From Bacteroidales bacterium (GTDB lineage: Bacteria > Bacteroidota > Bacteroidia > Bacteroidales > FEN-979): a stretch of DNA of 64,000 nucleotides. The stretch is taken from positions 4,644,979 to 4,708,978 of the forward strand of contig OY820914.1 of NCBI GenBank assembly GCA_963682005.1, read 5' to 3'. Below the pieces are notes generated by a model. That model was not told the origin of the DNA. It did not search any database and worked only from the letters and a program-made list of their open reading frames with translations. Positions 20,293 through 32,819 of the stretch are shown piece after piece. How positions within the stretch are numbered: position 1 is the first letter of the stretch; each line of letters opens with the position of its first letter. The translations under genes were made by a program, and so were the position numbers.

Positions 20293-22224
20293 ATAGTCGG
20301 GTCACGCAAGGGAGTTTCACCCCTGCGTTCCCACGGAACCGTACGTGAAAGTCTCCCTTCATACGGCTCTTCCTGTTCGATCACATAAATATAAGAACTT
20401 TATGGATATACCAATTCCCAGTGGGGAAAAAGACGGGGACATTCCCGGTACTTATTCCGAAGCCACCTAAGGGCTGCTTTATTATCCAACCCTTTTTCCC
20501 ATTTAACCCATTTAAGCAGGCGCTTATTTAATTGAGACCATAGATAACGTGTATGTCCCGAATGGAACTTGCAGAAGTAGTTCATGATCCCCCGTATTAT
20601 TGGATTCAGTTTCTCCGCTAAAGCCTCAATCGGTTTTCTCCATTTGTGGATATTTAGCTTTCTGAATTTATCCAATGCACTGGTGACGGCCTTTTTACTT
20701 ATAAATGTGGTGATCATTACCCGGTAACCTTTACCGGTTTTACACCACCAGGGATGCAATGAGAATCCAAGAAAATCAAGACTTCGGGGATATGTGTTCC
20801 GGGTAATACCGGCCAGGTTAACTATTCTGGTCTTTTGAGGATTGACACTCAGTTTGCAATCAGAAAGACGTTTCTGTATTAAGGCTAATATATACCGCGT
20901 CTGTTTCTCCGTTTTGCAATGAATCACGATGTCGTCAGCATACCTGACGAATGGTTTTTCAGGATGATATTTCCCCATCCATTTGTCAAATACAACGTGC
21001 AGGAAGATATTTGCCAGTAAAGGGCTGATTACGCCACCTTGCGGTGTGCCGGTTACCCTGTCAACGCAATTCCCATCAGTTTGCATGGTTCCTGCTTTTA
21101 GCCAACGTTCGACGTACAACAGCACCCATTGGTCCTTGCAATAGTTCCTGACTGCCTTCATCAAAAGATCATGATCAATTTTGTCAAAGAAACTTTTGAT
21201 GTCCAGGTCGATTGCCCAATCATGTCCAAACGTGTTACGTTGCGCTTTTTCCACTGCCTGATGGCAATTTCTCCCCGGTCTGTAACCGTAGGAGTTATCG
21301 CTGAACAATGGTTCTACGATTCGCTCCAAATGCGTTTTTACAACTTGTTGTGCAATACGATCCAGAATGGTAGGAATACCAAGTTTTCGTACCCCTCCGT
21401 CTTTCTTGTCGATTTCAGTTTCTTTTACAGGGTTAGGAAAGTAGCTTCCCGATGTCAGCCTGTTCCATAGTTTGTCAAGATTTGGGGTCAGGTTGTTATC
21501 CAGTTCATCCCAATTCATGCCATCTATGCCCGGGCCTCCTTTGTTGGCTCTGACTTTCCTATATGCCTGTAAAACCATTACTCTGGTGATCGGCTGTGAT
21601 TTTGTTTCGTAATAATCAATCATCCCATTGCTGGTTGTCGTTTATTTTTGAAACTGAACAGGCTAAGCCCTTCGCTCCACCTCCATTACAGAGGCTTTAT
21701 CACTACTATGACTTAGTCCGCCGCTGTTACCTCGTGCTATCCATGCACGTCTGCCTCCTTCTTCAGTTAACAGAGCGATAACAACTTCCCTTGTTCCGTA
21801 TAAAAGCCTGTATTGCCTTCCTGCCAGCTTTACCCCGGATGCCGTGTAACCCGAAATCAGGGCACCTGTTACACTTTGTCCCGAATATCAACGTACTACC
21901 CGGTTTTGACATCGTTTCTTGCCGGTTACGAGGCTTCAGCCACTGGTTTAATCTATTCAGCTCGACAACACCCACCTGCAAGAGTCTTGGCTCTCGCTTT
22001 TCCTTATCGTTCACCACACTGAGAGTTTCCGCTCAATGCAGCATAAGGTGGTTTGTAAACTACTCCTGACAGTCGTTTACAGAAGTCCATTTCTCATTTT
22101 CTGTTGGTAATGCCGGCCAGTCGCTTCGCTTGACCTCCGCTCACTTACACAATTTTCAAAGAGCCTTCCATCTTTTATACAACATTCAATTCCGTTTTCA
22201 TAGGAATTGATTCAAGGCACACAC
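20293..22224 (-). mobile_element. Intact group II intron (about 1.9 kb) with endonuclease-less RT/maturase; bacterial class C-like by size and intergenic location
   Basis: Canonical domain V GAGCCGUAUGAAGGGAGACUUUCACGUACGGUUC lies at about 20336-20370. Domain VI has a bulged A (..CCCUUGCGUGACCCGAC) at about 20296-20334. A candidate 5' GUGUG lies at 22224/22222. There is about 600 nt of structured RNA upstream of the ORF. Both boundaries are approximate. Confidence 0.85.
20400..21623 (-). CDS. Group II intron-encoded reverse transcriptase/maturase (no En domain)
   Basis: 407 aa. RT blocks GIDGM, RKLGIPTILDRIAQ, YGYRPGRNCHQA, PQGGVISPLLANI and the YADD box (VRYADDIVIHC). Maturase X region LNPIIRGIMNYF. 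Confidence 0.93.
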   Translation of the reverse strand: MIDYYETKSQPITRVMVLQAYRKVRANKGGPGIDGMNWDELDNNLTPNLDKLWNRLTSGSYFPNPVKETEIDKKDGGVRKLGIPTILDRIAQQVVKTHLERIVEPLFSDNSYGYRPGRNCHQAVEKAQRNTFGHDWAIDLDIKSFFDKIDHDLLMKAVRNYCKDQWVLLYVERWLKAGTMQTDGNCVDRVTGTPQGGVISPLLANIFLHVVFDKWMGKYHPEKPFVRYADDIVIHCKTEKQTRYILALIQKRLSDCKLSVNPQKTRIVNLAGITRNTYPRSLDFLGFSLHPWWCKTGKGYRVMITTFISKKAVTSALDKFRKLNIHKWRKPIEALAEKLNPIIRGIMNYFCKFHSGHTRYLWSQLNKRLLKWVKWEKGLDNKAALRWLRNKYRECPRLFPHWELVYP

Positions 22225-25019: not shown

Positions 25020-25434
25020 TTTGGAGTTTTAAATCATTAATGGCTTAACGATTATTAAACAGGTGCGATTACAATCTCAATAATACGATTTTGCATTATT
25101 ATGGAAAGTAGAACATCAAACGTATTGCAATTAGCATTACTCCCATAATTTTTTCCTAAGTAAAAATAATACAAATTAATACAAGTAATATATGTGGGGG
25201 TAATATTTTTGGCTGGTGAGGTGGTGAATAAAATGAAAAATTAAAAATTAAAAATTAATTTCTATCAGCCAGGATCCGTTGGCGTTGCAGATTCCTGCTT
25301 TCGCAGGAAAGACGGCCCGGTCTTAATAATTGAAGGGGATTGAACACCGGATATAACGAATTACAAAAAACTGTCAGGGTAAATCTTCACAGAAAAAGTA
25401 AGTTTTTCATGCGTTCCCGGTACTTTTTAACTGG

Positions 25435-25583
25435 TTGACGATATCTTCCCAAATAGTTGACGATATCTTCCCAAATAGTTGACGATATCTTCCCAAATAG
25501 TTGACGATATCTTCCCAAATAGTTGACGATATCTTTTCAAAAGTTGACTATATCTTTTACAAAGTTGACGATACTTTTCGGGG
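25435..25583. repeat. Iteron-like direct tandem repeat, 22-bp unit TTGACGATATCTTCCCAAATAG (4 perfect plus 3 degenerate 21-bp copies)
   Basis: Read directly. Copies lie at 25435, 25457, 25479, 25501, 25523, 25544 and 25565. There are no spacers between copies. Confidence 0.95.
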
Positions 25584-30854: not shown

Positions 30855-31958
30855 ATGACCACATTTTACAATAAACACAGGCTTTTCTTTATTATCGTTA
30901 CAATCCTTGTGATCGGGTTCCTGGCATGGTATTTCTCGAATATTGTTGTATTCATCCTGATCGCTGTGGTCATTTCAATCCTCGGCCAACCCCTGGTCAA
31001 CCTGATGGAAAAGGCCAGGTTCCGGAATCTGAAACTCCCCAGGGCATTCACAGCCTTTACAGCTTTGCTGATCATTGTCAGCATCGTCGCCGGGTTCATC
31101 AGTTTCTTTATTCCACTGGCTGTCAAGGAAGCCACGCTGATTTCAAACCTCGACATGGCGTCCCTCCTTGATCATTACAAGGATTCGATCAACGAGCTGC
31201 AGGAGCAATTGATGAAGTTTGGTGTTCTGCCGGAAAATACAACACTGGGAACCTTTCTTTCACGGGAAATTAAATCCTTCCTAAGTGTTGTGACCTTTTC
31301 GAATATGCTGGGAAATATACTGGCAATAACAGGAACCTTCTTTTTTGATGTTTTTTCTGTTTTGTTCCTGGCCTATTTTTTCCTTTATGATGAGAATCTT
31401 TTCATGAATATTTTACTGGCCATCGTTCCTGAAAAATACAATGACCAGACCCGTAATGTCACGGCCAAAAGCAAGCTGTTGCTGACACGGTATTTCATGG
31501 GACTTGTGGCGGATGTGATCATGATGATCATTTCCTATATCATTGGACTCACCATTGTAGGGGTGAAAGGAGCAGTAGTAATAGGCATTTTCGGGGGCAT
31601 TGTAAACATCATACCTTACATCGGGCCCATTATTGCGACTGTAACAGGTGTGCTGCTTGGTGCAACAAGTGTGATCGCAGCGGGTGATTATGTTGCGTTC
31701 TGGCCGCTTGTCATCAAGATCCTGATCGTATTTTCAACCGTTATATTGCTGGATAATATCCTCTATATCCCATTCATTTACGGGAAAAGCGTTAAAGCGC
31801 ACCCCGTGGAGATCTTCATCGTGATCATTGCCGCTGCAAGCATTGGCGGCATCATCGGGATGATCATCGCCGTGCCGGTTTACACTTTGTTGAGGATCAT
31901 TGCAAAGGAGTTCCTGAGCCAGTTCAGGCTGGTGCAGAAGATGACGGACAGATTGTAA
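30855..31958 (+). CDS. AI-2E family transporter (PerM/UPF0118)
   Basis: Polytopic membrane protein of about 367 aa with the typical architecture of this family. I prefer the ATG at 30855 over the GTG at 30834. Confidence 0.8.
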   Translation: MTTFYNKHRLFFIIVTILVIGFLAWYFSNIVVFILIAVVISILGQPLVNLMEKARFRNLKLPRAFTAFTALLIIVSIVAGFISFFIPLAVKEATLISNLDMASLLDHYKDSINELQEQLMKFGVLPENTTLGTFLSREIKSFLSVVTFSNMLGNILAITGTFFFDVFSVLFLAYFFLYDENLFMNILLAIVPEKYNDQTRNVTAKSKLLLTRYFMGLVADVIMMIISYIIGLTIVGVKGAVVIGIFGGIVNIIPYIGPIIATVTGVLLGATSVIAAGDYVAFWPLVIKILIVFSTVILLDNILYIPFIYGKSVKAHPVEIFIVIIAAASIGGIIGMIIAVPVYTLLRIIAKEFLSQFRLVQKMTDRL

Positions 31959-32098
31959 TGAGGTAATGAGATAATGAGATAATGAGATAATGAGATAATG
32001 AGATAGTGAGATAGTATGACTGCGACTTGGTGACTTGATGACTTGATGACCTTATGACCTTGTGACCTGGTGACCTGGTGACCTGGTGACTTGGTGAC
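31955..32098. repeat. Tandem 8-bp repeat, 18 units, drifting from GTAATGAG/ATAATGAG to CTGGTGAC
   Basis: Read directly in a perfect 8-bp register. The array starts inside the stop codon of 30855..31958. Confidence 0.95.
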
Positions 32099-32456: not shown

Positions 32457-32819
32457 ATGGAATCAGGAAAATTTTCTGAAAATATTTCGGACCTAAACGA
32501 AAATGTCCGGGAGTACATCAGGCTCAGGACAGACTTATTAAAACTGACGATAACGGAGAAAATGTCGTTCCTTGGGTCATTCTTCATCGTCTCCATCATT
32601 TTTTTCATCCTTTTCCTTTTTATTCTCACCTTCTTTTCCCTGGCATTCATACTTTGGTTTGGCCATTATATCGGGGCAGCCTTTGTCGGGGCACTTATTG
32701 TAGCAGGAGTTTATATTCTGATCGCAATTCTTGCATATTTCATGCGGAACAAATTATTCATTAACCCGCTGGTAACCCAGATATCAAAAATTCTGATGGA
32801 GGACGAAGATGAAAAGTAA
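32457..32819 (+). CDS. Small two-TM membrane protein (Holin-X / phage-holin-family-like annotation class)
   Basis: 120 aa with two long hydrophobic segments. It follows YtxH, as is common in Bacteroidota. Confidence 0.45.
   Translation: MESGKFSENISDLNENVREYIRLRTDLLKLTITEKMSFLGSFFIVSIIFFILFLFILTFFSLAFILWFGHYIGAAFVGALIVAGVYILIAILAYFMRNKLFINPLVTQISKILMEDEDEK

Follow-up and report, generated by a model that had tools for sequence, protein, structure and literature searches.

An octamer array between the AI-2E transporter and ytxH-like genes of a Bacteroidales bacterium shares its two blocks and their order with dispersed intergenic repeats

Results

A two-block octamer array in the AI-2E-ytxH spacer

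The window analyzed here is a stretch of 64,000 nucleotides from a Bacteroidales genome that is represented by a single 5.27-Mb contig. It contains a gene for an AI-2E family transporter, a ytxH-like gene directly 3' of it, which according to the alignment is conserved in this place across the family, and a Holin-X-like gene as the next member of a conserved, syntenic gene string (Table 1). A search for related loci of the AI-2E protein on the contigs of the genome found none. The gap between the transporter gene and ytxH is filled by a tandem array. Parsing of the window in Python gave 144 bases at 31955-32098, i.e. exactly 18 octamers, and the unit list in a preliminary description of this DNA turned out to be correct letter for letter. 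The same description had placed the start of the array inside the stop codon of the transporter, and the TAA at 31956-31958 does lie within repeat unit 1; the repeat is located outside both ORFs. The transporter ends with ...QFRLVQKMTDRL*, at the same position as in the congener G002. Elsewhere in the window, a 22-nt tandem repeat (GTTGACGATATCTTCCCAAATA x5.6, 96% identity) is found at 25434-25556, which is of another kind than the 7/8-mers.

Table 1 Features of the locus and of the surrounding window (window coordinates)
Feature	Position	Strand	Composition or support
AI-2E family transporter gene, 374 aa	30834-31958	+	PF01594, E=3e-39
Block A	31955-32010	+	7 octamers: GTAATGAG x2, ATAATGAG x4, ATAGTGAG
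Junction	32011-32026	+	two decayed units, ATAGTATG and ACTGCGAC (Hamming series)
Block B, AC-type	32027-32098	+	9 octamers: TTGGTGAC, TTGATGAC x2, CTTATGAC, CTTGTGAC, CTGGTGAC x3, TTGGTGAC
Leader, unique, A/T-rich, 39 nt, from array to ytxH start codon	32099-32137	+	
ytxH-like gene, 81 aa	32138-32383	+	PF12732, E=8e-13
Holin-X-like membrane protein gene	32457-32819	+	PF07332, E=2e-10
Group II intron	20296-22094	-	Rfam RF00029 (20296-20371), RF01999 domains D1-D4 (21974-22094)

Units 1-8 form a ATAATGAG-type block and units 10-18 a YTKRTGAC-type block, both of which are homogenised, with decayed units between them. TRF accordingly splits the stretch into two period-8 arrays, 31956-32013 (TAATGAGA x7.2, 96% matches, score 102) and 32024-32098 (GACCTGGT x9.4, 91%, score 87). 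The Hamming distances from unit to unit are 0,1,0,0,0,1,2,6,4,1,0,2,1,1,0,0,1, so that change within the blocks is stepwise and an abrupt break falls at units 8/9/10; the series therefore describes two uniform blocks with two decayed boundary units and no smooth gradient. Between themselves the junction units have 6/8 mismatched positions; from unit 9 to unit 10 there are 4 mismatches. The earlier proposal of a gradual drift between two motif families is contradicted by these steps of 6 and 4 mismatches, and its mechanism of duplication plus point mutation holds within the blocks, where variants are separated by 1-2 substitutions, and most likely does not account for the transition from A to B. 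The order of the units is nevertheless far from random, with neighbour distances that sum to 20; shuffling the units gave 49.4 +/- 5.5, and never less than 26 in 100,000 trials.

Both blocks share a single 8-bp register, as had been claimed. Columns 2, 5, 6 and 7 are T, T, G and A, constant in 16-17 of the 18 units, and blocks A and B are on average 3.8 apart in register, less than at the other seven shifts (4.9-7.5). Since the two junction units add up to 16 nt, the register is kept across the break. The 18 units follow a common skeleton, NTNNTGAN (N-T-N-N-T-G-A-N, equivalently A-N-N-T-N-N-T-G). In this frame block A reads AGGTAATG / AGATAATG / AGATAGTG and block B ACTTGGTG / ACTTGATG / ACCTTATG / ACCTTGTG / ACCTGGTG. 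A 2-Mb mononucleotide shuffle of the genome yielded no comparable chains. Every A unit contains TAA/TGA and every B unit TGA, and the period of 8 shares no factor with 3; in the sense direction, no frame stays open beyond 24 nt. Block A holds both TAA and TGA and therefore by itself closes all three sense frames. No ORF of >=40 aa runs across the array on either strand according to the ORF list of the window.

Orthologous spacers in related genomes

The synteny from AI-2E to ytxH is kept across the family, which allowed us to compare the spacer between relatives. In four genera (G013, G014, G009 and G004) it is 11-36 nt long and repeat-free. The spacer of G003 carries a GTAATTC-type heptamer array over the stop codon, and in G016 a mixture of octamer and heptamer arrays takes up about 190 nt; in neither genome are they related to the array described here. 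The congener G002 contains three A-family octamers (AATGAATT AATGAAAT AATGAAAT) 33 nt past the stop. In the congener G001 there is no ytxH between the AI-2E transporter and Holin-X-like genes, and the 26-nt spacer (G001:C54 1468-1500) has no array; the C-terminus of the transporter and the position of its stop are the same in G002 and G001. The number of units at the locus is thus 18 here, 3 in G002 and 0 in several other relatives. Because the relatives lack the array or carry unrelated ones, it is young, lineage-specific and dispensable, and different arrays have colonised this spacer independently. Given an ancestral spacing of just 11-12 nt, the two genes are probably co-transcribed. The preliminary description had suggested such a comparison as a check on its duplication-drift reading, which the A-family array of three units in G002 supports.

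A dispersed family of arrays with a common skeleton

Across the genome, TRF detected about 1095 period-7 and 656 period-8 arrays with >200 motif classes per period. Based on a greedy longest-ORF approximation of the gene set, which underlies the genome-wide statistics, the genome is ~91% ORF-covered, and still 73% of the 7-/8-mer arrays are intergenic, in comparison to 8-21% of the 6-/9-mer arrays, which are mostly inside ORFs. Arrays occupy 33% of the convergent, 19-21% of the co-directional and 17% of the divergent spacers. Where the flanking genes are co-directional, the median distance of the nearest array is 7 nt to the upstream stop (47% <=5 nt away or overlapping) and 42 nt to the downstream start. 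The distances at the AI-2E-ytxH locus (-2 nt to the stop and 39 nt to the start) are typical of the genome.

The template A..T..TG is fitted by 224/463 octamer arrays vs 33 +/- 5 for letter-shuffled units, and the top enriched cyclic trinucleotide in the units is TGA (255/463 arrays vs 123 expected). This template was defined post hoc on the present genome and afterwards confirmed in others: five consecutive skeleton units are found in 44/61 genomes of the family, representing 10 of the 13 genera sampled, with 1917 skeleton windows vs 320 for a reversed-pattern control. Outside the family, a match was obtained in just 14 of the 150 other genomes sampled from the phylum, mostly with 1-4 windows. 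The variable positions of the skeleton are species-specific (AAATGGTG, ATGTGCTG, AAGTAATG, ACCTAATG and others). Both blocks belong to dispersed families, and the earlier statement that the two end states occur elsewhere is thereby upheld.

Two further elements were observed at other sites. At C1:160580-161050, an in-register array of about 60 units (ATTTGTTG / AGTTGTTG / ACTTGTTG / ACTTGGTG) ends in ACCTTGTG ACCCTGTG and has the same polarity. The genome also has ~91 copies of CCCGCTTTCGCGGG or its complement, a REP-like hairpin that is often flanked by repeat arrays on both sides (e.g. C1:3772466, 2853090, 3240472 and 3052456).

Register, block order and shared composites

Adjacent arrays, defined by a gap of <=24 nt, have the same period in 166/193 pairs vs 109 +/- 6 expected. 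This is in agreement with the earlier suggestion that the period is conserved more strictly than the sequence, although the period is not inviolable, as G001 contains switches from 8 to 7 (TAATGACC to AATGACC). In that congener (L027 1490-1590, L029 1360-1560), single arrays change between the octamer TAATGACC and the heptamers AATGACC / AATGACT, and the heptamer and octamer families are therefore linked via one-base unit changes. The genome-wide check of register that had been proposed was positive: adjacent same-orientation skeleton arrays are in register in 13/19 cases vs about 2.4 expected (p=2e-8), including 12/18 pairs with units differing at >=2 positions. Neighbouring arrays across the genome also show elevated similarity when compared in register.

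The order of the blocks is equally regular. In all 14 pairs holding one AC-type block, this block lies downstream of its partner in skeleton orientation, and along in-register chains 32/35 comparisons place AG/AA/AT-type units ahead of AC-type units. Runs of A-type and C-type (AAGTAGCG) units touch the upstream stop codon or overlap it; B-type runs always lie >=39 nt from the stop and 13-70 nt ahead of the next start. At 5 loci a B run follows an A run (<=200 nt, same strand), in 4 of them in the same register; the reverse order, in which A follows B under the same limits, does not occur genome-wide. Sister composites of the present array are located at genome positions 4631095-4631240, 4262092-4262310, 2134732-2134798 and 4267059.

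Many of the B runs, all of which were listed, are part of in-register series that begin with a stop codon and AGATAATG, AAGTAGCG, AGGTGGTG, AGATGGTG or AGTTGTTG and continue with ACTTGATG, then ACTTTGTG or ACCTTGTG, and then ACCCTGTG; the B-type order ACTTGATG -> ACCTTGTG -> ACCCTGTG is present at >10 loci. Furthermore, the derived unit ACTAGATG stands right after a run of ACTTGATG, itself 3' of a C-type block, at three genome positions (4267083, 4631207 and 4447839). This series was found by direct search; a strict 5-gram search over skeleton chains missed it because ACTAGATG does not fit the skeleton. Since three loci share a derived unit, the composites are likely to have been copied between loci and not to have evolved locally; such sharing suggests either that composite modules were copied or that a common constraint acts on these loci. 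Between the AI-2E-ytxH array and other loci there are no long near-identical non-trivial matches, and what they share is the order of units without long identity. The array is a copy of a recurrent polar module, with AG/AA-type units at the stop and AC-type units toward the next start, which is present at many loci of the genome.

Composite modules of a larger format are located outside the window at C1:143700-146000 and 148700-151100, where they recur every ~395 nt in the order octamer block AGCTGGTG/AGGTGGTG, heptamer block CGAATTA, hairpin GTCCCCGCTTTCGCGGGGA and heptamer GACTGCC. No ORF of >=80 aa was called at 143.7-146 kb, and the cluster at 143.7-151.1 kb, an obvious copy-and-paste of composite modules, adjoins IS66-/IS3-like genes and a group II intron reverse transcriptase.

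RNA structure, orientation and association with PF05635

The spacer shows no unusual RNA structure (fold z=-0.17 in sense and -1.08 in antisense direction). Together with the absence of a terminator pattern, these values led us to reject a hairpin, terminator or attenuator; likewise, a REP/BIME-type palindrome or intrinsic terminator was rejected, as there is neither a stable hairpin nor a terminator-like site. Rfam 15 gives no match in the spacer, the sole matches of the window being the two to the group II intron (Table 1). No sigma-70-type promoter was found in the spacer by a scan whose model does not cover Bacteroidota promoters.

In co-directional spacers, skeleton arrays are preferentially in sense orientation (111:56), and in 43/60 convergent spacers the array is nearer the gene with matching sense orientation. 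With GC skew as the sole guide to origin and terminus, 78% of the arrays at lagging-strand genes are in sense orientation, and 52% of those at leading-strand genes. The orientation of arrays is therefore subject to a gene-related and a replication-related bias of similar size, the latter of which fits an origin by slippage. Rho avoidance via a C-poor sense strand is a weak candidate for the cause of the bias; the sense-strand GC skew of the arrays reaches significance in 1/4 strata.

Inverted arrays of the same period and with complementary motifs bracket at least 14 of the 20 genes for PF05635 (23S rRNA IVS protein), e.g. at C1 3579865-3580179, 5047624-5047932 and 1363162-1363476, and one such pair is built from the A family. 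If paired, such arrays would form a long hairpin whose loop contains the PF05635 gene. Over 61 genomes, the PF05635 copy number correlates with the number of skeleton arrays (rho=0.45, phylogeny uncorrected); as a control, the profile has a match in Bacteroides. PF05635 as the driver of the arrays was rejected, as the correlation is moderate and some genomes rich in arrays carry few of these genes, G038 for example having 431 skeleton windows and 4 PF05635 genes. The AI-2E-ytxH locus has no inverted partner and no PF05635 gene.

Discussion

Relation to known repeat systems

Tandem repeats of 7-8 nt have been known from intergenic regions of cyanobacteria, Beggiatoaceae and scattered other bacteria since 1990, without an accepted function or dispersal mechanism. 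LSSRs comprise units of 5-11 nt with heptamers dominant, for which polymerase slippage has been proposed (Mrazek, Guo and Shah 2007, via PMC4679880). As far as they are described in that secondary account, the present arrays resemble LSSRs in their tandem 7-8-nt units, a length well beyond chance (18 head-to-tail units of 8 nt at this locus), an overwhelmingly intergenic position, a proposed slippage origin and a sporadic distribution among lineages. The expectation that units which are not multiples of three are mainly non-coding is also borne out, as the array lies between a stop and a start codon. The arrays differ from LSSRs in the conserved four-position skeleton (TGA..T), the in-register motif blocks, the fixed polarity and a vocabulary at the level of the family. 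To our knowledge, a skeleton, in-register polar blocks and a family-level vocabulary have not been described for LSSRs before.

The TAACTGA repeats of Beggiatoaceae, cyanobacteria and a few Bacteroidetes, the function of which is unsettled (MacGregor 2015, PMC4679880), close all three frames in forward orientation and often overlap upstream stop codons (PMC4679880). The arrays described here share with them TAA and TGA in the unit, closure of all three frames, an intergenic position, overlap with the upstream stop, a forward orientation to the downstream gene and an occurrence inside operons. They differ in their variable 8-nt unit (ATAATGAG, CTGGTGAC and other octamers) in place of a fixed heptamer, in hugging the stop codon where TAACTGA hugs the start codon, and in their two-block composites. 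The function of short intergenic repeats in general is regarded as speculative in the literature (10.1101/2022.06.06.494920).

Our search of the literature found no description of a conserved skeleton, in-register block transitions or fixed block polarity. Mazel et al. reportedly described STRR heptanucleotide repeats of heterocystous cyanobacteria in 1990, and for these we know of no register or polarity grammar. Dispersed short intergenic tandem arrays with a small, species-specific vocabulary are common to both systems, but STRR repeats have a period of 7, other sequences and another phylum as host, and the octamers at this locus are not of the STRR1-3 type. Eukaryotic satellite DNA offers a further comparison: in the satellite 'library', related species share unit variants that are amplified differently, and concerted evolution takes place. 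The homogenised interiors and decayed edges of the present arrays are similar, whereas their small size (20-200 bp), their number in the thousands and their location in bacterial intergenic spacers are different.

Origin of the array and alternative explanations

Taken together, we think it probable, though by no means certain, that the array evolves by slippage and belongs to a dispersed, TGA-anchored family of repeats of the LSSR/STRR kind. The composite, microsatellite-like array of 18 octamers that fills the intercistronic spacer of the conserved AI-2E transporter-ytxH pair would grow and shrink in whole units via replication slippage or unequal exchange, and because its size changes in whole-unit steps, the 8-nt register would be kept. 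Substitutions would collect at the four free positions of the unit. Each block would be homogenised on its own, and the boundary units, which are in neither block, would decay. The juxtaposition of the two blocks may have been inherited or copied, with ectopic template switching, gene conversion or hitch-hiking with repeat cassettes as candidate mechanisms. Since the same composite and the shared series occur at other loci, a local origin of block B from block A is disfavoured, and most likely block B was not derived on the spot. At the AI-2E-ytxH locus, the array appears to be without essential function. It may be tolerated because UAA/UGA close all frames at the end of the gene, no stable RNA structure is formed and the 39 nt before ytxH are untouched.

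A purely local drift, by which one ancestral array changed stepwise from the AATGAG family to the GGTGAC family and left a private frozen record, would account for the single register throughout and the single-step variants inside the blocks; the A-type seed at the orthologous place in G002 and the genome-wide rise of in-register similarity between neighbouring arrays also agree with it. However, unit 9 is no closer to unit 8 than expected at random and the two junction steps amount to 6 and 4 mismatches. Moreover, the order A to B recurs in register at 4 other, unrelated loci, B-type variants and their order are common to >10 loci, the AC-type block is last in 14/14 pairs, and the derived unit ACTAGATG is common to three loci. 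We therefore consider this explanation unlikely, and the idea of a record specific to this locus, as put forward in the preliminary description, had to be given up. Even less credit is due to chance neighbouring of two unrelated arrays or an assembly artefact, which we regard as extremely improbable. TRF does report two arrays, and the 4/8 positions shared in register are weakly significant for this locus alone, but 13/19 comparable pairs are in register (p=2e-8), the composite is found again at other loci, and the 144 bp, shorter than typical reads, lie in a single 5.27-Mb contig.

Functional explanations have to be weighed against the same data. By analogy to TRAP/HutP-like proteins, an oligomeric protein could read the TGA-anchored 8-/7-nt units ((TGANNTNN)n, (UGANNUNN)n) on RNA or ssDNA as a periodic binding platform, a possibility that we rate as rather unlikely; with the same low expectation, such a platform might regulate the flanking cistrons (translation, coupling or stability) or be of use to a dedicated enzyme that makes or moves the repeats. 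Conservation of the skeleton across genera while the other positions vary, the sense-orientation bias of 111:56 and the polar, position-specific block types would fit a binding platform, as would the PF05635 data (rho=0.45 for the copy number and inverted arrays around >=14/20 genes), and binding of a regulator has been proposed for TAACTGA repeats (MacGregor 2015, PMC4679880). On the other hand, the array is missing from the same spacer in most relatives, no candidate protein was found, the PF05635 correlation is phylogeny-uncorrected, the orientation bias is gone for leading-strand genes (52%), and motif diversity is very high with >200 classes per period. A phase-variable (contingency) switch, in which gain or loss of 8-bp units shifts the spacing of a promoter or leader and alters ytxH expression, is a known mechanism for SSRs, and the unit length, which is not a multiple of three, and the position of the array 39 nt 5' of the ytxH start are compatible with it. 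We nevertheless judge it highly improbable, considering that no promoter-like site was found in the spacer by the sigma-70 scan, that the genes are 11-12 nt apart in relatives and probably co-transcribed, and that >1700 such arrays stand beside housekeeping genes, unlike contingency loci; as the array is past the stop codon and ahead of the start codon, it would have no frame effect on ytxH.

The preferred reading of a slippage-evolving array makes the AI-2E-ytxH array an ordinary repeat of a known kind that is probably neutral. Neutral slippage alone, however, predicts conservation of neither skeleton nor polarity, so that the presence of the skeleton in 10/13 genera and the fixed polarity are a hint of a sequence-specific factor or of selection. 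It is conceivable, if unlikely, with a probability that we place slightly below that of the binding platform and slightly above that of local drift, that the TGA-anchored 7/8-nt arrays constitute a sequence-specific system in which a dedicated factor, possibly linked to the four-helix-bundle proteins of PF05635, reads or writes TGA-NN-T-NN and polar composites are copied between spacers.

Significance

For the AI-2E-ytxH spacer itself, the practical message is modest, namely that its array is young, dispensable and probably neutral. The kind of repeat is already known, and its grammar, consisting of the TGA anchor, the 8-base step and the block order, is unexpectedly strict and modestly new. 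The regularities that emerge in one Bacteroidales family are the four-position skeleton, the register across a change of motif, the order of blocks relative to the genes and the probable copying of composites. These regularities can be tested on repeats such as (UGANNUNN)n, (UGAGAUAA)n and (UGACCUUG)n and could separate 'selfish slippage DNA' from a 'recognised element'. If a system with a dedicated factor were true, it would provide a recognition code and a mobile unit for the 35-year-old STRR/LSSR puzzle.
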